Program-made: the position numbers and the translations under genes | The notes under the pieces: model-generated | The model's input: the letters and a program-made list of their open reading frames with translations, nothing else | The model's database searches: none | Told to the model about the DNA's origin: nothing | Part shown: in pieces, positions 3,312 to 60,736 of the stretch | How positions within the stretch are numbered: the stretch's first letter is position 1 | How the letters are laid out: every line of letters starts with the position of its first letter | Assembly: GCA_046563655.1 (NCBI GenBank) | Contig: CM102284.1 | Coordinates: 4,154,001 to 4,218,000, forward strand | Source: Yuukianura sp. NJ FZ-2021 | Taxonomy: Eukaryota | Length of the DNA stretch: 64,000 bases | Direction of reading: 5' to 3'

Positions 3312-6300
3312 TTACATTGAATTTTTTCTGTCCGCAGGTCTGACGTAACTCGCGCCGCCATTTTTGGCCCATTCTTTTTCAAATTCCGATTCAAGGATTT
3401 CAGCTCCGCGTTTCCGTGTGAGTCCCGTTTCACGTAGTTTTAGTTCACACATTTCCATATCGTCACGTCCTAAAAATCAGATCAAGAACAGTTTACAATT
3501 GATTTTTCAAATTGCGTTTATGACACAAGTAGTAGCGGTGTGCCTTACCTGCAACCAAAAGAGCTGGAACTCGTCCAGCGTAGATTTCCATTTGTCGAGC
3601 GATGTACTCACCGTCAAAGTGAGCGTACCACAAGCCTTTGTTTTGTCCATCCTTGGTAAACGGTACACGGAAGTATCTTTGCTGCTGTAGCTCAGCATCC
3701 GGTGTTGGTGACGGAGTTGATGTAGCGAAGTTGTTGGTCTGCATGTGCTGGTAAACGGACTTCGGAGCTCGTTCGGCCACTTCGGCTGCGCCCTTGGCTC
3801 CACCTTTATTCTTGGCCTTCCAAGCGTGGTAAACTTTCAAGCGACGATGGAATTCCTCACTGGATGAAAGAAACCAAGAATCAGCGACCATGAAGAAGCC
3901 TCAATGCTGTTTGGACTTACCGACAAGCATCGAGAAGTTCGACATCGCAAGAAGTGTTGATTGTATCCCGTAACTCAGAATACTTCCAACCACTAAGGTC
4001 ATGTTTCTTTCCAGCCTTTGATGCTGCTGCGACATTTGACCTCCTCAGGCTAAGTCCGCTGCTTTCCGAAGAATCCACGGTGAGGTTGGATTCTTGCGCT
4101 AATCGGAAAGCTAGCTCTGAATCTCTTCGTTCTTGTTCCACCGCTGCAGTGAATCCGCCAACCAATGGAGCGTCACCGTTTCCGTTTTGCTTGCCTGCAA
4201 GACGTTGCTGCTCAGCTATTTTCATGACAGCTGCCAACCGAGCTTCTTCTTCCTTTCGTTTTGCTTCAATTTCCAATTTACTGAAACAAAGTAAAGACGT
4301 AGATCGTATTCATAACGTTGCTTTTTATCGAAAAATGTCAAGGTAACTTTCAAAATTTCAACTTAATTTTAATTTCAACTTACCGCTTCCGATTTTCTTC
4401 TTCAGCAATTCTTTGTCGCTCAGCCTCTTCCTTTTCCCGTTTTTGTCTTTCCATTTCTTCCCGGATTTTTCTAGCTCGAGCTTGTTCTTCAGCGTTTTTC
4501 TCAGCTTCGACCCGTTGACTCAACGTTTTAATTAGAGTATCACATTTTCCTAGGAGATCTTGATAGACTTGTTCAATTTCCTTCTCCGAAATTTTGTCAT
4601 TGGTCTAAAAGTTCAAAGTTCAGAGCCATAAGTTAGCCTAACTTCGTTAACTGGTTTAGATTTAGCTAGGTTAATCTAGTTTTCAACTAGCCTTGATTTG
4701 TTGAATTGCACCGGTAATTGTTGCGTTGAGTTTCTCAACTTCCTTCTGACTTATTTCACGATCTTTCTTTAGCTTTGCCACAGTTTCGCCCATGGCCGTA
4801 ATCTGGGTCAAAAGTTTCCTGACCTTGAGGATTCCCTTATACCGCGGACGATACTTTTTCTTGGCCAAGTGCATCCGAACTGTCTTCTGCATGATGATCA
4901 AGTTTTCGCGGCGGTAAGCGATTTTGTTTTTCACTGAAATGAAAAAGAAATTCGAAATTTTTTAACTCCAAGTTTTTCTTTTTGTGTTGCAGCGCATTGG
5001 AGCAAGTGACCTTACGTTTGATAACAGAGAGACCTGCGTACTGCACTTTTTTCCACTTGGATTGGATGATCCATTTGGCCACAGTGGACACCATTTCAAC
5101 CAAGGACTGTGGATCATTTCGCATGATTTGATCAAATTCTTTAAATTTTCCTGGACGAAAGAAGACCCGGGTCAACCCAAATCGGAAATCTTCTTCGGAG
5201 AGACCAAGGGCCTTGAACAGAGCTCGGCAAAAGAAGCGCGGGTCAAGCGATGACAACTTTGGTGGCAACAAATCCTTGTAAGTTGCATACAGTGATGCAA
5301 ATTGAACTCGAGATGGGAACCCCTACAAAGGCAAGATTCAGCGTTAGTTATAACTACTTTGAGAAGAGAATTTACGCTTCTTGTAACATGAGCGCTGATT
5401 GGCTGTCACCTTTTGCATTAGTTCCAGAACCGACGTCATGCCAGCCGATTGTAACTGGGACAGGATCTGCCCGCCTTCGAATTCGGACTGAATCATTTTA
5501 GCGTTCGGTTTGATGCAACGAATGAACGATGTTCCAGTGCCTCTCAACTTTTCTAAAAGTTCGCTCAACTGCATTCTAAATTTTGAGGCGACGCTGACAT
5601 AAACGAGTTTTCCTTTCTGCTGCGGCTGATTCGTCAAGGAAAAGAGGCTCATCAGGAATGGATTCTTGGACTCCTGGACCAATCCTTCCAGCGATGCATG
5701 CAAAGCGTCATTGTTCTTCTCGATAAATTGCGTCTATTAATCAAGAAAGAGTTAGGAGAGGTACTAGGTTACTAAAACTTTCAAAATGTAATTCCCCAAT
5801 TGTCAAACGAAATCTTAAGAACTGCTGGATACCAGGGATTTGTCGAGATTTTACGAAATGGCGACTGTGCTTACTGTTTTGTAGCAAACGGCTCCAGCGA
5901 AATGTCTGACCAAAAATCCTTCTTCATCTCTGATTTCACGGTGTTCTTTAATTTTAGATTTTCGGGGAAGAGCCAATCGGAAGTGAGATGGAAACGCTTT
6001 GTGAACTTGGGAAGTAAAATGTGACGCTGCGGGTTTAGGAAGTTTTGATTCTTCGTCCAGAATCGACAGGATACCGAGTTTAGGTGACTCGATTAACTCA
6101 ATACAGTCTGGAATAATATAAAACAATAAATTAATGCAAATGCGTGATTTGCTAATTATTTGCAGTGTTTTTTCAATGATTTGGATTAAATTTTACCAGA
6201 GTTGTCAATGTACTCAATTCGATCGACTCCAAGACCCTCTTTTTCGTACAGCGTTTGTTCGTCACTGAGAACACGTTCGTTGAAAAACTGTTGTAATTTT

Positions 6301-44851: not shown

Positions 44852-47363
44852 ATGTCGCCCATCCCGTTTGCACTGCTACTGCTCATTGGAACCTTAGCTG
44901 TAGAGGTACAGTCCCCGGTGTTTTATTTTAGGCCGAATTCATGTCTAGTGAACTCTCTCTCCTCAAACTAGACATAGCGTGTGTAGATTGGTTCCTGTCG
45001 GTTGACATGTGCCTAAACATTTGGACACGATGTGGGTCTCCTACTTTTTTTCAGACTCCAGTAGACATGAATTCGACACAGAAAAGAATGCATTCCATCC
45101 TGTAAACAATTACGTATACAGAATATGCAATGCATTGTGTCTAGTCCGGTACTCCAAATCTTTAACTTAACTTTAACCCATCATCCGCGTATCATTTGGA
45201 AGGCTTAAAATGTTTCAACTGTTACACTGGGTCTATGTTTAACAATAAATTTTAAAAAAATTGTTAGTCCAAGGTGAAAAAAAAGGCCCATTTTGAAGGC
45301 TAACTTGGCTGAAAATTGACAGGCGACATAAAATAACCTCAAACGAGTTCGGAAAATGCCGGAAACGTTAACGTTAACGCCAGAGCTACCGGCATTCCTT
45401 TGTCGCTAATTTTTTTTTTGTTTTTGCAATTTTTCTTCTCTAAATTCAGATTAGAGCAAATTCGCACGTTTTTTAAGCAAAGGACGTTTTCACTTGTGAC
45501 TTTTACTCTGATGCTGAGGTCATTTAATTGCGGAAAATTCCAACTGCAATTAATTGTCAAGACGCAATTAATTGTGAAACTGTAATTAATTTTTCTTTCT
45601 TTTTTGCAAATGTAGTATTTCCAAATAATGTCTCCAAGGATAAACAAACTGCCAAAATTTCCGAAAGGAAAAACAAAAGTAAAACGCCTGGATGGAAATA
45701 CCAGTTTTCTGGTTGGATTATACCCATGTGGGTGCATGTTAAAAACTTAGAAAAATTTCGAGAAAAGAATGACCTATGACCTATGGCAACCCAAAAAATG
45801 ACCTCTACAAAAGTTGTTGGGCTTGACGAGGGGATTATTGTTTGTCCTCTGACATATGACCTTGTGACCTTCCGTTGAGGTCATAGATAAATTTGAAAGT
45901 TAGTTAGGTTGGGTTATGTTTAACCTTCAAATTGACCTATGACCTCAACGGAAGGTCACAGGGTCATGTGTCAGAGGATAAAAAATGATCCCCCCATCAA
46001 GCCCAACAATTTTCGTAGAGGTCATTTTTTGGGGTGTCTCGAGATGTCATTGACCGTTTTCTCGAAATTTTTCCAAGTTTTTAACATGCGCCCACATGGG
46101 TATAATCCAACCAGTTTTCTATATTTTGCATGAACAAAGTTTATTATTTAGCCATTTGTATATTTCTAGAATTAAGAAAAAAAATAACAGTGAATGGAAT
46201 TGCAGTGGAAGAAAAATTGCAAGGATTTGAGGGATTACCGAAGTAAAATAACCTAAAGCGTGGATCAAAATTTACAAGGAACTGAATTTTAAAACACCGA
46301 AACGAGAAACAGAGTCAAATACACATTCGTGTGCGAATTTGATTTTTAGTAAAAAAATGGCATGTGGTTAACTAAATTCTATTATTTAAATACTACTCGC
46401 TTGAAATTTAGTTCAGGCTGTTTTATAAATTATGGGAAAATCCAATGCCAATTAATGATTACGTGTTAAATTCCATAGGATTTGAAAATTTTGAACTTTT
46501 TGGACCATCTCCAAAATTTCGAACCATTGCATCAAAAGAAAATGTGAGGGGTCATTGTGAGGTCACGTATTGATTTGCAGCCAAATCTAAAATAACCTGA
46601 ATGATAAGTTAACCGAATCCACGAATCGCCAATTAATAATGTAAAAGATTGATCAAATTAAAGTGTGAAAATTAATGATTGAAAACTTCAAGATTAACGG
46701 ATACATGACAAAGATTAAACAGATTTAAGCAGTAGTTCATCAAAAACTAGGATATGGTAAGGTGGATAGTGGGTGTAACAGAAAATTAGTGCAGCGATGA
46801 TGGACAGTAGATCGAATCCCAGTAAGAAGGTCTTTTTTTTTCTTTTTCTTTTTGGAGTGTCTAAAATACTCGACACAACCATTTCTAAAGCGACTGTTCT
46901 GTATACTGGACCAGACAAACACTCCCAAGTCTTCCTCCTCCGGAAAATTGTCACAGTGTCTAGTCCAGTAGACACAAAAAGGGACCAAGTTTGTGGGTAG
47001 AAGATTCAACATACTACTGTACACAGCCTGTACCCAATTTCATTCACCGGGTCTGCTAAGCGGTCTGATGAGGATCATGAATACTCCTATGAAAATGACG
47101 ATGATCGTATAGCTAGCGCCCTGGAGGAGTTGCAAAACATGCGCAGGAGTCGACTGGGCGTTCTGTCAATTGGGGACAAAGATGGAGACGATAAATTAAG
47201 CTTCGATGAACTGCATGACCTTGTGAAGTCACAAGACAGTAAGGAAAAAGTAACCTCTGCAGAGATTCTGGTTCAATTCAAGAAATTGGACACAGACAAC
47301 GACGGTTTCATTACGCCAGAGGAATTGAGTGCAGCGGGAGAAATTGACTCTGATGAAAAATGA
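44852..47363 (+). CDS. Secreted two-EF-hand protein whose CDS is interrupted after codon 19 by a 2.1-kb insertion (disrupted allele or intronised TE)
   Basis: MSPIPFALLLLIGTLAVEV (44852-44908) joins in frame to HSLYPISFTGSAKRSDEDHE… (47022 onward) when the insert and one TA are removed; EF loops DKDGDDKLSFDE and DTDNDGFITPEE; intact paralog next door. Confidence 0.75.
44909..47019. mobile_element. Composite/nested DNA-transposon insertion with TA target duplication
   Basis: TA|CAGT…ACTG|TA boundaries; internal inverted repeat GCCGAATTCATGTCTAGTG (44932) / CAGTAGACATGAATTCGAC (45059-45077); GTGTCTAGTCC motif near both ends; contains a further MITE. Confidence 0.7.
45711..46112. mobile_element. 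Foldback MITE with GG…CC termini and 8-bp TSD (Merlin-like hallmarks)
   Basis: GGTTGGATTATACCCATGTGGG / CCCACATGGGTATAATCCAACC; imperfect arms ~190 bp; AGTTTTCT at 45703-45710 and 46113-46120. Confidence 0.85.
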
Positions 47364-47812
47364 AGCAAATGAACCTAACCCAACATCGATACTTAAACTT
47401 TGAAAACTTTGTCTAAAAAAATTTTCCAATTGCAACAGTAATAAACGCTTTAAGCAATCTCATTTGGAATTTGGAAATACACGAAATTGCGGTTTGTAAT
47501 TTGACCTTGACCTGGTGTTAATAAGCGAGTCTGTGCGTCCAGCGTTAACTTTAAGTTGAATCTGAAAACATGTCCAATTGAAGTATCGGTTTGTCATTAA
47601 ATGGCCTCAATTAGGAATTGTTACACTTAGGTTCATATTTAAGCTCAGAGCAATAACTTTTTCAATCATTCGACAGATTTTCTGCCTACTACTCTACGCG
47701 ACTTGGTTGAAGCAAACTGTGAGACAACTAAACAATTTGTGTATTCTCCGTAATATTGAAATCGAATTTAATTTGGCGCTTTGAATTATTTAGGCGGGAA
47801 ACTACTGAAAAC

Positions 47813-48181
47813 ATGGCCCCATTTCAATTCGCGATCTTAATCGTTGCTGCTCTGTGCGTCGCTGGAAGTAACGCTTCCGAAGAGCATTCGTTTGAAATCA
47901 TATACGACTATGACTCTATAGAAGCCCCTACGGATGACCAGATCCCGGACTTCCTCCGGGAGCTTGCCACGGTGTCACGTTCCAACCTCGGAGCATTGTC
48001 ACGCGGAGATACAAATATTGATGGGAAACTGAGCTACCAAGAACTTCATGACTTTGTTCGAAATACTGCCAGCAGCGCTCAAGACAAGTCCTCGACTGAA
48101 ATCAAAGAAGAGTTTGATTCAGTCGATACGAACAAGGATGGATTTCTGTCAGAAGACGAGATTAAAGCAAGTCGACAATAA
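47813..48181 (+). CDS. Secreted two-EF-hand protein (single coding exon), paralog of the gene at 44852
   Basis: Signal peptide MAPFQFAILIVAALCVAGSNA; EF loops DTNIDGKLSYQE and DTNKDGFLSEDE; shared RSxLGxLSxGD…ELHD motif. Confidence 0.85.
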   Translation: MAPFQFAILIVAALCVAGSNASEEHSFEIIYDYDSIEAPTDDQIPDFLRELATVSRSNLGALSRGDTNIDGKLSYQELHDFVRNTASSAQDKSSTEIKEEFDSVDTNKDGFLSEDEIKASRQ

Positions 48182-50328: not shown

Positions 50329-53300
50329 ATGGGCTGCAGTTTCAGTGCCGCTCATTCACCAAAAACTCCCACTACGACTAGTAGTACAATAAGTTTTAGA
50401 ACAATGTCTCCGACACGTTCGTCGTCACTTGCTTCCAAAATTCTTGACCTGGATTCCGTAAGTTTTGAAATTTTGAAAACATGTGTACATGCAATCATGT
50501 AATTTTCCAATTACCTGTTGTAACCAATCCAAACTTTTCGAAAGTTTACGTTTCGTAAGAAAGAAAGAAGCTTTGGAGTTCTGTTTTGTTTTCGAACTTT
50601 TCTTTTCCGATTTTTTTTAGTCTTTTACGTGACAGGTTTTTGAAATTTTGTTGAAAAGAGACAGGCACGGTTGAGCGTCCAAATCGATTTCTTGCAAATT
50701 CTTTACACACTTTAGTTTCCAATATTTTCAACCCAAAACAGTCCAAGGTCACCCACAGACTAAATGACTTTGACATGGATCCTCTCATGTAAAATGCATC
50801 TTTTGTTCCAGTCGATTTCCAAAATACAAACAGAGTCATTGCCGCTTCCTGCACAAACTTGGCCTCTATTCAGTTTAGCGCCTACTTTCGATTTTTGTTT
50901 CCCAATAATAAGCGATTAGACATTTTAATTGCATCTTTGTTTTCGCAAATGGAACAGGGAAGCAGTTCGGATATTTTGGATTTGGAGCGCATGCGCTCTT
51001 TACTAGAGGAGTACATGGCCACTGAAGACAGAATCCAAGGTCTTGAGACCACCAATCCAGTAACAGTATTTTACGTCAAGAAATCACAACTGGATCAAAT
51101 TGAAACCAAAATAAAGTACCAACTGGTTGAGATTGAAGCACTCAAGCACATTGTTCAGTCGTAAGAATTTATTTAAAATTTAATTTAACTGAATCTTTAA
51201 AAAATAACTTACGTTTGATTTCCAGAAAACGCGAAAAGCGTAGCTCGAGTTGTAGTAAAAACCGTATACCTTCGCCAAGTTTGCGCATAACAAATACATC
51301 ACAGCACACCGTTTTAAATGTTTTGGAAGGAATGGGGGAGAAAAAAATTAACAAAGAAGAACAAGATATTTTGACGACTATAAACAAATTGGTAAGGGTG
51401 AAAAGAGGTCAAGGTCAAAATTTGGAAATGTCAAATGCTTTAGTTCGAGATTTTGATTCTTTGCCCAGGAAATTGCGACAACTGAGCTGGAAATGCTGTA
51501 TCAAGAAAGGGCGTTGCATGGGGATGAAGTGGCGGCTCTCTATGGAACTCTGTCGCAGCTTAGCGAAGAGTACAAGAAACAAGACTCCATTTTGGGTAAC
51601 TTTTTTTTTTGAAAATCACAAACTTTATGAAAAAGTAAAAAGCTTCCGAAAGTATTTTTTTCAAGAAATGAAGTTTGTTTCAACAGAACAGCTTGGGATT
51701 GATGCTAGTTTCAACGAAGATGCAAAAGAGGAAGCTGAGTTGGTGGACCTCGAGTCTAGGCGTGTCACAATTTCAGAAACGTATGAACGCTGGAAAGAAG
51801 CGCGAGGTCAACTTATTCAAATCTGTGGTCAGTTTTCCATGGTTCTTACAAATATGGACGAAGCATCAGCAACTCCGAGCGAGTAAGACAAAGTACATAA
51901 TGCAACTCACTCAGTGCATCCGATGCACTGCATCAACGTTGCTATAGCGACCATTTATACTAAAATGGCGTAAGAGGTTATGTCATAACTCCGATTTAAA
52001 AAAAAACAAGAAAAAACAACTTTTGTACCAATTTTGTACCAATTTTGTTGATTTTCACAATAATCTTTTAAATTTCTCGTCGCTGAGTTATAGTTTTGAT
52101 TTCGAATTGCTAACGCAACGGAGCAGCGTGAGATGTGCGGTTCAAAAAATTTGAAAAAGAGAATAACGGAGTTTTTGGCATAACCTTCTAAGCAAAAATA
52201 AACAAAATTTCGAGTTAAACAAGCTTGAGGTCAGCAGTCAAAAGTCAGCTGGTCAGCTGATTTTTTTTAGGCGGGAACTTACCCCATGACATTTGACCCT
52301 CCCCATGCTTGTTCCGACTTCCCGTACGGTTTCTCTGCCGAGACACTCGCGTTTGCGCTGTTCCGAGAAAATTTCCAGCTCCACTTTTCGTCGGCGTCAA
52401 GCGATTTGCAGTACCGGTCTTCATTGTCATGTGGCGGGAGTTGCGTCAAAAGCTGTTTCAGGATATTCTTCTCTCCCACAGAATTGATGTAAGGAATCGC
52501 TGATTCCGGAAGGTAACTAAAGTACAAGTGGACCTACAAAATATCACAAAAAGCATTTCTCAAAAACTTAAATTTCAAAAACTAAAATTTTATTCTGGAA
52601 GGAAAATGAAAAATGAAGGTAAATTCCGGCGAAGAAAAAAATTACCTTTCGTATTAATCATCTTCAGAGTCGTATACAGTTTTTGGGTGGAATTCTAACT
52701 TACAATTTGTAAGATAGATAGAAGTTTGCAATATTTTAAATCTGTTTTATTTTTTTCAAAATTGTCAACATTTTTCAAAAATCAAAATCAAACCAGCATT
52801 ATTTTTTACCGGTTTGGATTTTTACCTGTTCCGGTTTGAGTCCTGGTGGCACCCAAGTGTATTCTTCCAGTGCACATCCAGAATCCGAATCGGAGTGACC
52901 GTTCCCATTGTTCCGTCCATGATCGTTGTGGAACGGCGGATTTAAGCGTGTCATTTCCAACGATTGTGTTTCCAAATTTTGAAAAGTGGTGCGAAGCGAT
53001 CTGTTCGGACGTCTGAATTCTGTTGTTCCTCCTGGATTGCTGATTTTGTCAGATTTTGACCTGTGAACCAACAAAATTTGTGCAAATTAGGAACAATTCA
53101 ATTTAAACATCAACGCAATTACTTAGTTTTAACTAAAATTAACACCTTTGTTCAAGATTTTTCAAAAACCTCAAAAATTCAGATTCCCTCTCATCACATT
53201 TTTGAATTTGAGCCAATGACCTAACCTGAGCATCCTATAGTTCCTAGTTTGATCTCCATAGACCCAACACACTTTCCACCAGTTCTTGGACAAAATGAGG

Positions 53301-54971
53301 CAATTGTTGTTGTAGCCACTATTGCTGTTGCTACTATTGCAACTCCCAGTATTGCCCATTTTAGGAGTTGGTGGAACACGATCTGTCGAAGATTTCGTGG
53401 ACATTCCAAAATTTCGAAATTTTGTTTATTTCTTCTTAGAAGGTTATGCCAAAACTCCGTTATTCTCTTTTTCAAATTTTTTGAACCGCACATCTGACGC
53501 GGCTCCGTTGCGTTAGCAATTCGAAATCAAAACTAGAACTCAGCAACGAGAAATTTAAAAGATTATTGTGAAAATCAACAAAATTCCTACAAAAGCAGCT
53601 AGTGGCGGCGGTTTACAATGGTAACTAATGGCAACGCAAAAAAAAATTAAAATCCGTGACGTCAGCGTGGAGAATACAGTGAGTTTTTTAGGATTTCTAG
53701 TGTACGAAAAAGTTTTCAATGACGGTGTTAACACGGAAACAGAGAAAACACACATTGAACATTAAAAAACTCACGGTAGAAATGACGTTGCCGAGGGGAA
53801 AAAAATCACCTCAATTCTTTCTAATTGTAAATAAACCGTACCTAGGAGTATTCTATTTACCTTGGTACAAAAGTTGTTTTTCTTGTTTTTTTTTTTAAAT
53901 CGGAGTTATGGCATAACCTCTTACGCCATTTGTACAAATGGTTGCTATAGCAATCTTGCACTGCATCGTATACATATTTGCTGACGCTCTTGAACGCTTT
54001 GTATCAAATCCTAAACGTTTTAGTGACGTTCCCGTCGTTACGTGCAATGGGCGTGGCCACTATGAAATCGGAGAAGAAATCCGCGACAGACTCGTCTCGA
54101 TCTTCCAGGGAATTCACAATGTCAAATTCCTCGTTCGGATTGACCTGCCCTACTGCGCCGACGCGGAGGTGCTACTTTTGCAAAAAGTACGAAACTAATT
54201 AATTAAACACAGTGAATTAATCAACTCATTGACTAATGCCCTTGGGAAATCTTTGATGTAGGCAATGACATATTTGTTTATTGACTTGAGAACAAAGCAA
54301 AGGAGACAGCATGCCAGAGACTGCTATGCAGCATTTCACCATCGAGCCATTGCGCTTCTGACGTGGATCGACAAGGTAAGTTATGTCTAACTTTGCGTGC
54401 TAAATTTCGCTGACCTGCACATGCTCACTTTTCAGACGATTGGAACCGTGATCGAACCAGCACTGGAGCTCAAAACGATACAAATCCAAGAAAAAGTTCA
54501 CAATTTGAGCCAGCTTCGTCTTCAGAAAATCTGCAAACAGGTTAGCAAGCGTTTTCAAAAAATTCAAATTTAGGTGGGACTACTTTCCCTGAAATGTTCT
54601 AAGTTAGGCAAAGCCGACATTTCTGTCTAATTTCCCAGTTCCCTGACCTTTACGGAAAGAGACGTCACCAGTTGAGGTCACCAACACCATGTACAGCTTC
54701 TGATGAGAAAATGTCTTGGGAATCAACGCTGCAAGATAACTTGGATCCAACCTCCACTGAACTCCTGAAACAAATAGATTTGGACATGTTAATAAAAGTT
54801 CCAGATGAAGTTCAATTGTTTGAAAGTGACAATCAGAGAAAAACGGAACTCAACGACGACACTTCAGCAATATTGGGACATGCCATCATCAATTCAAAAG
54901 ACAGGACGAATCGTTTCACCCGGAAAGCGTCCATGGACAACCTGACACAAATGCTTGTCAGTATTAATTAG
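50329..54971 (+). CDS. Uncharacterised coiled-coil protein with MGC N-terminus (possible myristoylation/palmitoylation), about 9 exons
   Basis: Checked junctions splice in frame: MGCSFSAAH…[16 protein letters not shown]…, …[15 protein letters not shown]…[15 protein letters not shown]…WIDK|TIGTV…CKQ|FPDLY…VSIN*; intron ~51883-54023 hosts the TIR element. Confidence 0.65.
51921..53968. mobile_element. Long-TIR element carrying captured host-gene exons (Pack-TIR-like)
   Basis: Left arm ~51921-52213 is the reverse complement of 53414-53585 plus 53862-53968 (e.g. AAATGGCGTAAGAGGTTATG / CATAACCTCTTACGCCATTT); the interior holds prickle exons and introns; no clean TSD found. Confidence 0.8.
52283..53359 (-). 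pseudogene. pk: Truncated prickle/espinas fragment (N-terminus + PET domain, no LIM domains), one frameshift
   Basis: Exons 53359-53226 (…[13 protein letters not shown]…), 53060-52826 ([22 protein letters not shown]), 52533-52283 ([10 protein letters not shown]…[12 protein letters not shown]…); a 1-nt deletion near 52385 hides …[21 protein letters not shown]…VKCHG. Confidence 0.85.
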
Positions 54972-55113
54972 TTAAATCAGGTTAATTTGTAATGAAACGT
55001 TGCGGCAATAAGTAAAGTTATTTTGGTACATTTAGCAAATACTAGCAAATTGCCCGCAGAATAGTTACAAAATAGTTTTAGACCAAATTGGGTTGAGGTA
55101 AACTTTAACGATC

Positions 55114-55981: not shown

Positions 55982-57596
55982 CTAACGACGATTGGACCTT
56001 GGTGACTCCTGCGCTATGGGCGCAATTTCTAACTCCGCGAGGAGTGGAAAGTGATCTAAAACAATCCAAACAACATGATATATTCCTGAACGTATTTTTT
56101 TAAAAAGTACTTTCAAAAAAGTGCATACCAGATGGAATGGATGGGTGCGGAGCGCCGATGATTTTGTTTTCAACCAAATATGTCTGATCCAGAGGACCCA
56201 GAAGACCTAGCGGATTCATATTCGGCTTTGAATAGTAGATGTAGTCAATGATGCCCTTGAACTCAGCGGTGTAATCTGTATAAGGCATCACATCCGGAGC
56301 GTAGGTCGAGCAAAGGTTAAAGGCATGCGTATACTCGTCTACGTCGTTCTTCTCCCCGTTGAAGGAGAGGCGATTCAAAGGTTGCTTGTACGCTAAAGCT
56401 TTAAAATCCGCGTGATTTGATGGGATACGAGACATTTGTAAAAATTCCGTTACGCCTATAGCACAAAAAGTGTTACATTTCAAAAATGAGTAATTTGAAT
56501 AAAGAAAATACAGTGAGTTTATCAAAATTTTAAGCATACCTGATCCGGGCAACGAATTTAAATCACCACATAGCAGAAGATGGACTTTTTCTGCCGGAGG
56601 TGCCTTGGACGTTGGGTTTGACGCTTCAGCGATTAGCCGGAGCTCATGCATTAGCATCATCGTTTGAGCCAACTTGACGTCACAAAACTCAGGATCCCAG
56701 TGAATATGAGTTGTGCAGACCAGGAGCGGGATGTTGTTCGCTGGAACTCCGTTGTCCCAAGCAGCATCTTTGGTACTCAGCAGCGCAGCTAACCCAACAT
56801 TATCTGGAAAACAGAGAAGTCCGGAAGTCAAGACTGTCCGGAAAACGAAGAAAGGCTAACGAATGTACAGAAATGTTTACCTTTCGTCATCACTCGATTC
56901 AGCATGTCATCGGATCCTTCCGCATTGGCCATCGCCAGTTGATTGAACTCCATTAAATGTTCCTTTATTAGAGAAAACTTCGCTGATCGAAAAAATATTG
57001 CACAGCCGTCCACAAACTTCCGATCTGTCTCCGACATCGTCTTCGCCCGAGACTTTGCCGCAAAAATACCCTGTAAACGGACATTTTAAAAAACTTAGCA
57101 ACTTTAGACATATTTAGATCACAATCCAAAAAAAATATTTACTTACGGAGTAACCGTCGGCTTGCAATTCCGGCAAAAAGTAATTAAAAAACTGATCTGT
57201 CTCCTAGAAAGTATAAAAACAAAACAATTGATTTACATTTCACAACAAAAGCAATGCTCTATGATTCAAAATCATACTCTACTTCCGTACCACTTCCTGA
57301 AGACAAATGATATCCGCCGAGTAGTGTTTCAATTCCGTCAAAATGGCTTTTCTTCGATACGACCAATCCAACGCCCACGTTGGACAGTAACCTACAACAA
57401 AAGAATACAAATACAAATCAATATTTACATTTAACCTTCTAACATGTTGACCCAATAGACTCACCGTACATTTGCCGAGTCGCATATTTGTCACAAAGTA
57501 CGTTGTAACAAAGAACCGTGAAAAGACATGCGGGTCGATCTCGAGTGGGCGTTCCAACGGGAATCCAATTCCGTGCAGGAGGTTCGGTTGCAGGAG
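55982..57596 (-). CDS. CNOT6: CCR4/CNOT6 deadenylase (twin), 3' exons only (EEP nuclease domain); LRR exons not found in the window
   Basis: FTVLCYNVLCDKYATRQMYGYCPTWALDW…ADIICLQEVETDQF…KSRAKTMSE…VDGCAIF…THIHWDPEFCDVKL…CGDLNSLP…GIIDYIYY…PSDHFPL. Confidence 0.95.
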
Positions 57597-58214
57597 CTTT
57601 AGAAACAAAACAAACAAAAAACACTTAAAAACTCAATAATTAACGTAATCAATTAAACTTTAATTAGCAAATGAAAACCAATTCTAAATTGATTTGGGGC
57701 ATAAAATTCATCAATAAATCCATTTCTATAGTCTCAAAATACATCCCCAAAGAGAAAGAGTTAAGGTTACCGCACACCGGATGGCGCCGACTGTCGGCGG
57801 TTGTCGGCTCTACTTTTTCTGTCCACTTGACTATGGCACACCGAAAAAAGTAGCCGCCGAACTTTTTCTTCCCGTCGGAGAGGAAAGAAAAAGTTCGTTT
57901 CACTTTTATCTTTCCACCCGGCACACCGGAGAAACTTGTCTGCTCCACTTTTTCTGCAGACAAAAGTGAAACGACAAATTGTCGGCTCACTTTTGGCGCA
58001 GACTATGGCACACCGAACACGAAAATATTCTGCGGTCAAATTTTTGTCGTCTCGGAAAGTTCAACTTGTTGAACTTTTCGAGACGAAAAAATTCGGCGCC
58101 AGTTTTTCCTCTATGGCACACTGCACTTTCGGTCGAAAGTTAACTTTAGTAGAAACTATATAATTCAGTTTACAACCATCGTCTTCTTCGATTTTGCTTA
58201 ATCGTTGCTCAACG

Positions 58215-59129
58215 ATGGAAGATAGTCAAGATAATATTGAGCAATGGTCACAAATGAGTGTTCCAGAAGACAACGGTGAGTCCAAAGACGAATTGATCAA
58301 TTCGGTGAAGTCCAAGACAATTCTCTACAATCCAGGAAGTAATTCTAATCGGAACCGATATTTACGAGAGAACGCTTGGAGTGCAGTAGCAACTGAGGTA
58401 TCTAAATCTGGTAAGAGCATAGCGCTATGCTGGAACTTAACAGCATTCGTAACATAACTAATTAATGTTTTTCTTTAATAGTACTATGGTGCAAATCTGA
58501 GTGGAAGAAGTTGAAAGATCTTTATGGAAAAAAGAAGAAGGCCATAATCGGTAAAACGGGACAAGCACGGAAGAAGATCGAAAGCTGGGAATATTTTCAT
58601 TCATTGCAGTTCCTGGATGACTTCAGCATTCAATCACAGTATGCACAATCTTAAGCAGTTGGTGATAAACATAAGGGATATACTCTAATTAATATATTGG
58701 TTATAGAACAATTGGTAATGTGGAGTCACCAGAAACAGTTGATGTCACGGTTCATGATGACGACAACAACACAGAAGAGGTAACATTTGCATGGATCCAT
58801 GCATCTTCTGTTTTTCAATTTGTCTCTGCACTCAGTTCCAGGTCACAGTTCTAGAGCAGACTCCAACTACCGTTGTACCTCCGAAGGATGTTACACATTC
58901 TAAAAATCGTGCTAGGAAACGTCCGGGAGTGGAACTCGATAGCGAAATCGCCCAATATTTGAAACGAACTTCAAAATCAGTCGAAGACTCGCATCATCAT
59001 TTTGCCATGGCCCTAGCGGATGATCTTCGCAAACTTACTGCTCCCACCGCATCCTATCTTAAGCTACGTATTTCACAGCTAGTTTATGAAACGTCGTATC
59101 CTGAGAAAGGTACTAATGGAACTGAGTAA
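58215..59129 (+). CDS. Harbinger accessory DNA-binding protein (MADF/Myb-SANT with C-terminal BESS-like motif)
   Basis: LINSVKSKTILYNP…YLRENAWSAVATEV…WCKSEWKKLKDLY…WEYFHSLQFL; C-terminal DSHHHFAMALADDLRKL…LKLRISQLVYE; 3 introns. Confidence 0.85.
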
Positions 59130-59170
59130 TTTTTATTTGCAAAATAAACTATGTTGCTCCTAGCATAGCT

Positions 59171-60736
59171 CTATGCTACGGGCAGCGCTGCCCGTTCATT
59201 TTGCCATGGGAGGCTGCCAGTTGTTACAAAGTAGGAAGCTAGGCTGTCTCTCATCGACTTAGCATTTTTAGAATAATTGTGTGATGAAGTAGAGGAAAGA
59301 CTAGGTAAGACTGTGCCATCCTGCCTCCACTCTCCGTTGTCAGAGTCATCTTCATCTACATACCCTGGTGGGCAGTACTTTCGTTTTTCTGGTGCTAGTT
59401 CGTCATCTACTGTCTTCAGGAAGTTGTGTAGGACGACAGCAGCTGTGAATGATTTATTTTTATTAAGCAATGATTGATTGAGGGGGAGAAGAGAATGGAG
59501 CCATTCTATTAATTTAAAATTAAAATCACCTTGAATAATCAAATTTATGTGGTCTTCAATAGCAATGATAACCCTCTTGAAAATTCGAAACCGATTGGCT
59601 AGTATCCCAAAGACATTTTCAATTACTCGTCGGGCCCTGGATAGCCTGTAATTGAATATCCGCTGAGTGGATCCACCGGCTACCTTCCCTGGGTAAGGTC
59701 TCATCATGTACGGTGTTAGAGCAAATGCATCGTCACCGACAAATGCACACGGCATGCAAAGGTTTGTGTTTTTAATGATTCTGTCCCCGGGAATAGGAAG
59801 GCTCCCTGTTTCAAAAAGTAAAATTTATTAATATGGAGCCATATTACTAGAAATAAAATAAAAAATACCATCTTCCAAACGTTGTCCGAGCGATGAGCGG
59901 GCGAAGATTCCCCCGTCGCTCTGTCTTCCGCACGCTCCGATGTCGACTGTTGTGAAACGATATTTAGCATCACAAGTAGCCAGCAGGACGACACTAAAAA
60001 ATCCTTTGTAATTGAAGTTGAGTGAGCCTGAGTTCTTCGGCGCTTGAATCATGATGTGCTTCCCATCGATTGCTCCGAGGCAATTTGGGAAGTTCCAAAT
60101 GGTTTCAAAGTCGTCAACAATACTATTCCATTGGGATTCATCAGGACACTTGAAAATATTAAAAATTTTATAGCAAAATTAGTATTTTATAGAGCTTAGC
60201 GCTAAGCTATTTTTTTTTTTGAAACTGTACCGGTAGATACACGGGACGAAGTGTATCCCAAATCACTTGAAGTGTTTCCCAAATTATAGACCGAACTGTA
60301 GAATTTCCAAGACTGAATCCTGTCGCTATTGTTGAAATTGAATCGCCGGTACTCAAGTACCTACAAAAGAAAAGCGCTTTTCTTAAAAAAAAGTTACACA
60401 GTGCCTTCCTGTGTTAAACGTTTAAAATTACCGTAGAGCAACGAATAATCGTATCCGTGGGTGAATGGAGTCTCTATAATTTGTATCTGCTTTGGTAATC
60501 TTCTCCTCAGTTAAGGCCAAAAGCGTATCAAACTGGGCAGCTGACATTCTGGTGTATTGAAAAAACTTTTCAGGATATTTTGTATACATCAGTTCTACTT
60601 TCAAGTGTTCGCCCATGGTTGGTCGCAGTAAATTCAAAGGATGTATCCAGTATCTCCGCTGACCTTGGCGAATGCGTTGATTTCTTCGTCGCAGTATCAA
60701 CACTAGTGCGAACTTTTCTTTTTGAGTGAGATACAT
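59171..60736 (-). CDS. Harbinger DDE transposase (HARBI1-like)
   Basis: Five exons splice in frame: …RLFVALRYLSTG…FPNCLGAIDGKH…NYKGFFS…GRQSDGGIF…VGDDAF…FNYRLSRARRVIENVFGILANRF…LHNF; catalytic D, D and E present. Confidence 0.95.

Follow-up and report, generated by a model that had tools for sequence, protein, structure and literature searches.

The locus studied here lies in an intron of a host gene on the + strand of the window, by which we mean the whole 64-kb stretch of DNA that was analysed. The exons of this gene stop at 51882 and resume at 54024 in matching phase (2+1), reading ..TPSD/DVPVV.. across the junction, and the GT..AG intron between them (51883..54023, + strand) measures 2,141 nt with, and 108 nt without, an element of 2,025 bp at 51934-53958. 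This element consists of two inverted arms and, between them on the - strand, a piece of the genomic prickle gene. The earlier note had already placed the element antisense within an intron of an unrelated gene, and the intron borders and host exon phases bear this out.

The captured prickle segment (52228..53413, - strand) is 1,186 bp long and holds a leader of 7-9 nt, exons 1 to 3 and introns 1 and 2, and ends after 55 nt of intron 3. Exon 1 (53226..53404, -) has 179 nt, that is an ATG, 59 codons and 2 nt, followed by a donor GT at 53225-53224. Exon 2 (52826..53060, -; 235 nt), which encodes the linker and the start of the PET domain, lies between an acceptor AG at 53062-53061 and a donor GT at 52825-52824, whereas exon 3 (52283..52533, -; 251 nt) encodes the remaining PET and is bordered by an acceptor AG and, at 52282, a donor GTAAGT. 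The exon phases are compatible (2+1, then 0) and all GT/AG sites are in phase. Since two introns with their GT/AG borders and 55 nt of a third have been kept, the segment is not a retrocopy. Two of the four translated pieces matched the Pfam PET profile, namely the opening stretch of exon 3, with E 1.5e-13, and the 3' end of exon 2, with E 2e-4 (its 21.8 bits lie under the 25-bit cut-off), and no match was obtained with this profile for exon 1 or for the piece behind a frameshift in exon 3. The frameshift is caused by one T that is absent from the + strand run at 52385-52388; an extra T after 52384, which restores the PET reading frame, is found in the parent-like contigs described below (4/4 runs) and in L001, a contig of a related organism, so the 1-nt deletion that the earlier note had read from this position is genuine. 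The in-frame PET match covers profile positions 7-76 of 102 and the rest of the domain lies behind the deletion, which takes away the last third of PET; in its own frame, the captured exon 3 reads through its donor to a stop at ~52279. In a tblastn search of the 64-kb window with nine prickle-family proteins, matches were confined to 52304-52999, and neither LIM homology nor a parental prickle gene was found within the window. We rejected the captured fragment as a prickle protein on the incomplete PET and on the absence, in this nine-query search of 64 kb, of the three LIM domains. The exon and splice analysis, Pfam and tblastn thus agree with the earlier description of about 1.2 kb of intron-containing prickle, with an ATG exon, a linker exon and a PET exon in correct phase and the LIM domains missing.

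Comparison with the related organism supports the gene structure. In L001, exons 1 (with its ATG), 2 and 3 are in frame, the LIM exons follow directly after exon 3, and the Pfam profile matches are strong (PET 1.5e-25, LIM 1e-17). The exon boundaries of the captured copy agree with those of L001. For exon 1, the last 28 residues share 82% protein identity with L001 and 80 nt share 85% DNA identity; exon 2 is 70% identical to L001 over 63 residues and 83% identical to P0208 over 47 residues. In organism B, an interior contig is circularly permuted.

The earlier note had supposed a separate parental prickle gene, and indeed a parent-like copy is present in the same sample at full single-copy depth, as two variants whose depths in X1 sum to 253.6 (163.4 + 90.2), both with the extra T after 52384. 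Among the alignments listed, these parent-like contigs match the element solely at 52228-53411. One of them, X4 record 19 (6,857 nt), differs at 20/324 letters over 52228-52551 (~94% identity) and at 49/592 letters over 52820-53411 (~92%), with 268 nt of intron 2 unaligned at >=80% identity; beyond the match it continues for 2.4 kb on one side and 3.3 kb on the other in different sequence, and no arm piece stands beside it among the alignments listed. Contigs identical to the captured copy (zero differences) occur alongside the two parent-like variants, in X1 records 4-6 and X2 record 11, and X1 record 4 crosses the frameshift site. Two residues distinguish the copy from both the parent-like contigs and L001: exon 3 codon 24 is R in these and I in the captured copy, and codon 18 after the break is G in these and E in the copy. 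On this comparison the missing base and both replacements are apparently derived changes of the captured copy.

The left arm (51934..52227, +) is one whole unit, ~294 bp long, of a high-copy, MITE-like small repeat, in which 52021-52042 is an 11-nt tandem duplication. The right arm is split into an inner part (53414..53594, -), with 95% identity to the reverse complement of 52032-52213, and an outer part with the terminus (53862..53958, -), with 92% identity to the reverse complement of 51939-52031. With the intervening insert removed, 263 of the 282 aligned columns are identical, 13 are mismatches and 6 are gap columns. At its inner end the right arm falls 14 nt short of the full repeat unit; other copies have 14 extra letters before 53414, mirroring 52214-52227. 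Thus, the ~290-bp inverted arms of the earlier note are real, but one of them is interrupted by a nested repeat and each is a full small repeat unit with imperfect terminal inverted repeats of its own, which is more than a long TIR. The terminal inverted repeat of the unit scored 29.5 against 8.2 +/- 6.1 for shuffled sequence, and none of 300 shuffles reached 29.5. Sequencing depth over the arms is 50-250x that of unique sequence (in X1, ~1e4-6e4 over the left arm vs ~200-250), and same-sample contigs have loose ends before 51934 and behind 52227/52228, where they run into unrelated sequence (agreement 0.41-0.45). X1 has 30, X2 has 22 and X4 has 18 contigs in which other copies show a loose end behind 53958. 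Some contigs omit the middle of the unit and retain both its ends. Depth, loose ends, middle-skipping contigs and the unit's own TIR all mark this family of arms as a mobile repeat. Its outer ends, at 51934 and 53958, follow from where the loose ends in other copies lie. The derived 11-nt duplication is common to both arms and is absent from at least 11 other contigs of the family. Within the right arm, the nested repeat (53595..53861, 267 nt) lies between two nearly identical 11-nt stretches, 53584-53594 and 53862-53872, has a depth of ~4,000-4,600 in X1 and turns up within different surroundings in X4 and X5; a search of it for TIR, tRNA and Rfam matches found none.

Flanking the element are two identical 8-bp copies of CACTGCAT, at 51926..51933 and 53959..53966, which we regard as its target-site duplication (TSD). 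The 11-nt flanking repeat alone would permit a length of 8-11 bp, and it is the family ends in other copies that fix it at 8 bp. The TIR element that the earlier note drew at 51921..53968 is therefore upheld, with its true ends at 51934 and 53958; the remainder is the TSD plus chance matches. Neither arm has a duplication of its own, as the letters adjoining the inner ends differ, and a single TSD encloses the composite, which disposes of the concern that the arms might be two independent insertions each with its own TSD. An empty allele with one target copy is also present: in X1 and X2, contigs join 51923 to 53957 and omit 2,033 nt (2,025 + 8), with 11 letters that fit on either side. The depth of this empty site is 120.7 in X1 and 194.3 in X2, the latter on a 254-nt record with one other letter in 250 aligned, and a second, diverged haplotype is also without the element (X4 record 15; X1). 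In X1, the contigs with the exact interior have depths of 86-104, the two empty alleles 120.7 and 57.9, and the unique flanks 212-253. The insertion is still segregating, at intermediate frequency, and a TSD on both sides together with an empty allele is what cut-and-paste insertion leaves. This site is the one insertion of the composite that is known.

Among the same-sample contigs listed, none runs from one flank through both arms and the interior to the other flank, so that the linkage of these parts depends on the assembly from which the window was taken, and high-copy arms are places where assemblies break. Moreover, in X4, which comes from the same sample, the interior is solely parent-like and the host haplotype solely the empty, diverged one. 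Could the interior then be the true prickle locus, or one of its haplotypes, misjoined to repeat copies in the intron? We consider this extremely unlikely. A misjoin would not give a perfect 8-bp TSD with a spacing, 2,033, that matches the skip of an independent empty-site contig, zero-difference copy contigs are found in X1 and X2 at about half of unique depth alongside the parent-like variants, and the captured copy has derived changes of its own.

As to superfamily, the hAT family makes TSDs of 8 bp, P elements likewise make 8 bp and Merlin 8-9 bp. With a single 8-bp duplication as the basis (n=1 insertion), the element may be called hAT-like or P-like, and hAT is not singled out. Of the outer termini, CAACG on the left fits the hAT motif YARNG and CAAGA on the right departs from it at the fifth letter; on the inner side the termini read CAAGC, and CAAGG in other copies. 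An assignment to Pack-MULEs or other Mutator-like elements was rejected, as these call for a TSD of 9-11 bp and the duplication here, delimited by the family ends in other copies, has 8 bp. The sole transposase in the window is of the Harbinger type (DDE_Tnp_4) and is unrelated to the element.

Taken together, these data are best explained by a non-autonomous, cut-and-paste Pack-TIR that still segregates, with MITE ends and a DNA copy of the 5' end of prickle that moved as a unit, and with a cargo that is most likely non-functional; we put the probability of this reading at roughly 0.78. Two inverted, MITE-like copies form the ends of the element, with the DNA copy of the species' own prickle 5' end between them, and the whole composite would have been mobilised through its two outermost termini and recently inserted antisense into the host intron, duplicating 8 bp of target. 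Capture would have taken place elsewhere and earlier, followed by transposition to the present intron, presumably by a transposase of hAT or P type acting in trans. The cargo may have been acquired by two MITE insertions on either side of exons 1-3 at the parent locus, or an inverted MITE dimer may have broken at its centre and been repaired by copying prickle. The TSD, empty site, parent-like copy, high-copy arms and L001 exons all support the earlier proposal of a DNA-level capture, by a TIR element, of prickle exons together with their introns. The interior differs from the parent-like contigs by 6-8% while the flanks of filled and empty alleles differ at 1/250 letters, which fits with capture having preceded the move to the present site. 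This timing argument is weakened because the 6-8% distance from the parent could be partly allelic, as same-sample haplotypes at the host locus differ by up to 6.8%.

Alternatively, a MITE or an inverted MITE dimer may have entered the intron first, producing the 8-bp TSD, and a later internal break may have been repaired in situ by copying 1.2 kb of prickle. Such gap filling near the parent is the origin proposed for most single-copy animal Pack-TIRs in the survey of Tan et al. (2021, Nat Commun 12:4280, PMC8277862), and the composite here is single-copy by depth, its exact interior contigs standing at about half of unique depth. A break at the dimer centre with slight resection would also be expected to leave what is seen, a left junction exactly at the inner terminus of the unit and a right arm short by 14 nt, and the derived 11-nt duplication common to both arms fits copying from one unit. 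We nevertheless hold this route to be unlikely. Among the joints listed, the site occurs as filled, empty and diverged empty classes with no MITE-only allele; the cargo, with its 6-8% divergence, frameshift and derived replacements beside nearly identical flanks, has changed much for an event younger than the insertion; and the parent is absent from the 64-kb window, whereas 56.9% of the cases in the survey lie within 15 kb of their parent (PMC8277862).

The earlier remark that gene capture by animal TIR elements is less often described is dated, as 370 animal Pack-TIRs are in print, with hAT the commonest carrier (208/370; PMC8277862). Like these, the present element holds non-TE sequence within the range of 100-5,000 bp between the ends of one TIR family, here arm pieces including the termini, with introns kept, a parent-like copy elsewhere and an 8-bp TSD that is hAT-like as in their commonest carrier; the survey's definition also asks for a unique parent at >=90% identity over 80-120% of the length and no TE within 100 bp of that parent (PMC8277862). 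The differences are equally clear. The cargo of 1,186 bp with three exons contrasts with a published median of 224 bp and with 13.4% of cases that contain exonic sequence (PMC8277862); each end is a whole MITE unit and not half of one element; and the TSD and empty allele mean that the unit or its carrier was inserted. The nearest arthropod counterpart in that report is Ssk-FB4 of Drosophila melanogaster, likewise a polymorphic, transposed, multi-exon gene copy made at the DNA level between long inverted arms, for which, as here among the listed joints, the insertion site showed no allele of the carrier alone (PMC8277862). Ssk-FB4 contains nearly a whole gene and its upstream region, is multicopy and highly expressed, belongs to a protein family reported to be positively selected, and has arms of ~700 bp and a MULE-like TSD of 9-10 bp (PMC8277862), whereas the cargo described here is a promoterless, frameshifted 5' fragment, single-copy and with an 8-bp TSD. 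Plant Pack-MULEs also carry gene fragments with introns between long TIRs, in copies that are often truncated and pseudogene-like (PMC8277862), but differ from the present element in their Mutator-like TSD. In alternative transposition and macrotransposons of maize Ac/Ds, the ends of two nearby elements are used (PMC4270019, PMC9910405); if two MITEs once flanked prickle exons 1-3, their outermost termini may have moved the intervening segment in a similar manner. Unlike maize Ac/Ds, this would involve ~294-bp MITE units in an animal, and no MITE stands at the parental breakpoints among the alignments listed; the route is one that we infer.

Read in this manner, as a Pack-TIR that has transposed and still segregates in an arthropod-like genome, the locus clearly illustrates a type of gene capture that is already known, with no new mechanism and no new kind of element (Tan et al. 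2021, PMC8277862), and what is known of prickle is unchanged. Its value lies in being a clean, datable case of animal exon shuffling by a DNA transposon, with filled allele, empty allele and parent in one sample. Arthropod cases are rare, the 2021 survey giving no Pack-TIRs for insect reference genomes and one polymorphic fly family (PMC8277862). As the insertion still segregates, the models for its origin, that is two-element transposition, palindromic-dimer gap filling and replication template switching, could be separable by simple genotyping.

It may finally be asked whether the captured fragment is functional, either through a truncated PET protein or as a source of antisense or double-stranded RNA against prickle, much as the earlier note had suggested with its PET-only product or antisense/small RNA. 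The copy has an ATG and three splice-competent exons with all GT/AG sites intact, the two collinear parts of the arms are predicted to form RNA duplexes of -263 and -130 kcal/mol, and from geometry alone antisense prickle would be expected in the host pre-mRNA. Across three species, at least 30% of profiled Pack-TIRs are reported to be transcribed, often as chimeras with host genes (PMC8277862). Even so, the functional proposal finds no support, and we judge a functional cargo very unlikely. With a leader of only 7-9 nt, no parental promoter was captured, PET is cut short and the LIM domains are missing as described above, two residues that agree in the parent-like contigs and L001 are replaced, and the insertion, at intermediate frequency, coexists with intact empty alleles. 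In any hairpin the prickle part would form the unpaired loop, so that Dicer products would derive from the arms. We would give the same slight chance to a broader scenario, in which an active MITE family mobilises host exons via the outer ends of two units, the prickle composite is not inert and feeds antisense or double-stranded RNA, or a PET peptide, into planar-polarity regulation, and the permuted contig of organism B is a trace of a tandem or circular capture intermediate; if true, a ~280-bp stem would close the composite, antisense within a transcribed intron. Because promoter, LIM domains and C-terminus are absent, a base is lost and conserved residues are changed, the cargo is most likely a dead fragment, its sole direct effect being to lengthen the host intron from 108 to 2,141 nt.

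In the host-gene intron at 51883-54023, two inverted, MITE-like arms enclose a captured fragment of prickle, forming a composite of 2,025 bp given the repeat-family ends at 51934 and 53958. An 8-bp duplication, CACTGCAT, lies on both sides of the composite (51926-51933 and 53959-53966). We aligned Logan contigs of four public sequencing runs to 51000-55000 at 80% likeness. X1, X2 and X4 come from one sample of organism A, possibly the source of the window's assembly, and are not independent of the window; X5 comes from organism B. Contigs of an empty site, joining 51923 directly to 53957, occurred once in X1 (depth 120.7) and once in X2 (depth 194.3; 254 nt, 1 differing letter in 250 aligned). 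The joint skips 2,033 nt, that is, the 2,025 of the element plus 8, and 11 letters fit either side. Arm, cargo and arm are thus shown to be a single unit that is present or absent entire, together with its 8-bp duplication. We reject a reading as two separate arm insertions around a resident prickle fragment, because no duplication brackets either arm singly and the empty allele misses arms and interior jointly.

Contigs identical to the interior had a depth of 86-104 in X1 and 100.5 in X2. The X1 value amounts to about half that of unique sequence, which places the insertion at intermediate frequency in the organism A sample, segregating and not fixed. A diverged haplotype (X4 record 15) also lacks the element, carrying about 45 letters in place of the window's 51897-54011, with 61 differing letters out of 897 and 26 out of 989; a similar empty contig in X1 had a depth of 57.9. 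The host locus itself (51000-51896 and 54012-55000) is extremely polymorphic within one sample, and the intron of the second haplotype is much shorter. Such haplotype divergence suggests a pooled or a hyperdiverse, outbred source.

The length of the duplication points to a hAT element as the candidate carrier, at a length that P and Merlin elements also make; P elements generate 8-bp duplications and Merlin elements 8-9 bp. A Mutator-like carrier is excluded by the 8-bp duplication. CAGTGC-like words near both ends prompted a Tc1/mariner reading, which we reject since other copies set the family ends at 51934 and 53958 and the element is flanked by an 8-bp duplication instead of TA.

The left arm spans 51934-52227, and the right arm (53414-53594 and 53862-53958) is split by 267 nt (53595-53861) not present in the left. 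With this insert removed, the arms align with 263 of 282 columns identical, 13 mismatches and 6 gap columns, around an interior at 52228-53413, which bears out the earlier note's description of inverted arms enclosing about 1.2 kb. Both arms are members of a repeat family, and their depth in X1 was about 1e4-6e4 against about 200-250 for unique flanking contigs. The repeat unit is about 294 nt long and usually solitary, since contigs from other copies diverge into unrelated sequence before 51934, behind 52227/52228, before 53414/53469 and behind 53958. In some family contigs the middle of the unit is skipped and its two ends remain (as at joints 51958->52188 and 51994->52194), and the outer and inner ends of the unit are imperfect inverted repeats of one another (identity in 46 of 89 columns; a score of 29.5, compared with 8.2 +/- 6.1 in 300 shuffles, none of them as high). 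No further arm copies were found elsewhere in the 64-kb window or in the 42 metagenome loci examined. The left junction with the cargo coincides exactly with the inner terminus of the unit, and the innermost 14 nt of the unit are missing from the right arm.

The two arms share a further mark. An 11-nt word is tandemly doubled in the left arm (52021-52042) and, as near-copies with 9 of 11 letters matching (53584-53594 and 53862-53872), stands on either side of the 267-nt repeat nested in the right arm; it is present once in at least 11 other family contigs of X1. The doubled word is a derived state common to both arms. This state fits arms that trace back to a single unit with the nested repeat formerly in it, and an active subfamily bearing the mark would also explain it. 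The left-arm tandem, with nothing between its two words, resembles an excision footprint. The nested sequence is moderately repeated; TIR, tRNA and Rfam matches were sought for it and none was found. Across 51800-54100 the Rfam and tRNA scans returned two Rfam matches, both far under the gathering score, and 0 tRNAs, and a tRNA-derived SINE was rejected as a reading of the nested repeat.

All three cargo exons lie on the minus strand: exon 1 at 53404..53226 (ATG, 59 codons plus 2 nt, donor GT), exon 2 at 53060..52826 (acceptor AG, 235 nt, donor GT) and exon 3 at 52533..52283 (acceptor AG, 251 nt, donor GTAAGT), with phases that fit across all three. Two of the four pieces searched matched Pfam, with PET found at the end of exon 2 (E 2e-4; 21.8 bits, below the 25-bit cut-off) and in the opening part of exon 3 (E 1.5e-13), and no family for exon 1 or for the piece after the frameshift. 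Coordinates, phases and Pfam PET therefore agree with the ATG, linker and PET exons with in-phase GT/AG sites that had been proposed. When nine prickle-family proteins were compared with the whole window by tblastn, matches were confined to 52304-52999 and their LIM parts matched nowhere in the 64 kb, in keeping with the LIM absence reported earlier. The frame of exon 3 is lost by one base after codon 49, and the copy's own frame reads past the exon 3 donor to a stop near 52279. Upstream of the ATG, only 7-9 nt were captured.

A normal prickle gene in a related organism provides the reference for this structure. Among longer proteins, 87 passed the prickle search, with a best coverage of at most 63% of the query, and those of highest coverage were 48-64% identical; among proteins of near length, 164 passed, the best being the 74-aa P0208 (39 of 47 residues identical, 83%). 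No near-identical prickle protein was found among these 87 and 164, which means that the collection lacks the species' own prickle protein. P0208 is encoded on a 7,034-nt metagenome contig, L001. Its first exon, with ATG, has no Pfam family, and the last 28 residues of that exon are 82% identical to exon 1 of the window. A linker-plus-PET-start exon follows, then an in-frame PET exon that includes the base missing in the window and, directly after it, LIM exons. Three of the four L001 pieces matched Pfam (PET, 1.5e-25 and 1.4e-4; LIM, 1e-17), and DNA identity to the window is 78-85% in exons only. Judged against L001, which shows the same exons and then LIM exons, the cargo comprises exons 1-3 from the 5' end of a prickle gene, ending 55 nt into intron 3.

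The cargo is also shown to have a parent-like copy elsewhere, as the earlier note had supposed. In X1 the interior occurs in its exact version and in two variant contigs whose depths, 163.4 and 90.2, add up to 253.6, about single-copy depth. Moreover, the 6,857-nt X4 record 19 aligns solely at 52228-52551 (20 differing letters, 2 gaps) and 52820-53411 (49 differing letters, 64 gap letters); its homology stops where the arms start, and flanking sequence of about 2.4 kb on its upstream side and 3.3 kb on its downstream side falls outside the stretch. The copy-specific interior had no cover among the X4 contigs, which was counted neither for nor against. Both X1 variants and the X4 and X5 interior contigs carry an extra T after 52384; the 1-nt deletion noted near 52385 is unique to the copy, parent-like contigs and L001 retaining the base. 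Exon 3 differences were polarised with L001 as outgroup, using the best-supported ones, which are a sample and not a rate, since 387 more exist. Among those listed, replacements private to the copy are I in place of R at codon 24 and E in place of G at codon 18 past the break; one replacement (D versus A; V in L001) and two synonymous differences were unpolarised. Besides the missing T, bases at 52463-52464, 52418 and 52332 are diagnostic of the copy. Some parent-like contigs have other sequence midway through intron 2 (joint 52606->52822, 215 nt giving way to 198 other letters), and in others this part is alignable (X2 record 13 and X5 record 23). Depth is raised in the intron 2 bin 52742-52875 (2,318 in X1), and there is probably a small repeat within intron 2 of the copy or the parent. 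In organism B, the 1,308-nt X5 record 23 has exactly the extent of the captured interior (52227-53411) in circularly permuted order: 53411 is joined to 52227 via 74 unplaced letters, the contig ends overlap by 30 nt, the bases are parent-like, and the depth of 17.4 compares with 4-7 in most contigs from the flanking locus. A tandem array, circular DNA or an assembly cycle could each account for it.

We infer that capture of the cargo preceded the move to this site: between filled and empty alleles there is 1 difference in 250 flanking letters, against a distance of 6-8% between the cargo and either parent-like variant. Divergence among alleles of up to 6.8% in the sample weakens this argument. 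The composite may have arisen by either of two routes, and the position of the left junction, the 14 nt missing from the right arm and the 11-nt mark shared by the arms are relevant to deciding between them. Two MITE insertions may have bracketed exons 1-3 at the parent locus, the outermost termini then being used, which would resemble the use of termini from two nearby elements by maize Ac/Ds, as far as the cited accounts describe it (PMC4270019, PMC9910405). Alternatively, an inverted MITE dimer may have broken at its centre and been mended by copying prickle, corresponding to gap filling or template switching as presented by Tan et al. 2021 (PMC8277862).

The survey of Tan et al. (PMC8277862) covers 100 animal genomes and gives 370 Pack-TIRs, 208 of them on hAT and 115 on Tc/mariner, with a median cargo of 224 bp and exonic sequence in 13.4%. 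[quoted passage not shown] The prickle element has the structural features of a Pack-TIR that we examined from this source, and unit-wise presence or absence, the 8-bp duplication and a parent-like copy elsewhere support the Pack-TIR reading first put forward from the sequence. However, compared with the animal Pack-TIRs as surveyed there, its cargo is larger and multi-exon, its ends are whole MITE units, it is segregating with the empty allele visible, and its parent does not lie within the 64-kb window (PMC8277862). The element is mainly of value as a tractable, still-polymorphic case for how animal DNA transposons acquire exons.

As to function, the cargo is most likely an inert fragment whose effect would be to enlarge the host intron from 108 to 2,141 nt, given the 7-9-nt leader, the broken PET frame, two changed conserved residues, the absent LIM/C-terminus, and its single-copy and unfixed state. 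The putative functional role for the captured fragment is unsupported. In host-strand RNA the arms are predicted to pair at -263 and -130 kcal/mol (two collinear parts). The prickle part would form the loop of this hairpin, and any small RNAs would thus come from the arms. For the host gene, four ORF pieces and a fifth returned no Pfam family, and its exons fell in unnamed Atlas clusters only (scores of 0.87 for one exon, and 0.92 and 0.91 for the other, whose taxon label was arthropod-leaning with low recognition).

Beyond the host gene, exons of a CCR4/twin-type deadenylase (CNOT6-like) lie at 56100-57632 on the minus strand. The ORF at 56100-56855 (minus) matched 250 proteins at E <= 1e-20; among the 120 of these matches listed, named ones were mostly arthropod, and the top ones were 45-59% identical. 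These matches mark the genome as arthropod-like. As the best named arthropod relatives are only this similar over a domain that is normally well conserved, public protein sets cover the lineage poorly. A Harbinger/PIF-like unit occupies 58164-60178. Its plus-strand ORFs match MADF (Pfam E 1.3e-6) and BESS (E 5.7e-4), and two neighbouring ORFs on the minus strand, with a stop or a short intron between them, encode a DDE_Tnp_4 transposase (E 1e-11 and 1.4e-10). On the other side, neighbouring plus-strand ORFs at 47001-47363 and 47732-48181 each encode an EF-hand pair (EF-hand_7, Pfam E 1e-7 to 5e-9) and are probably a tandem gene pair.
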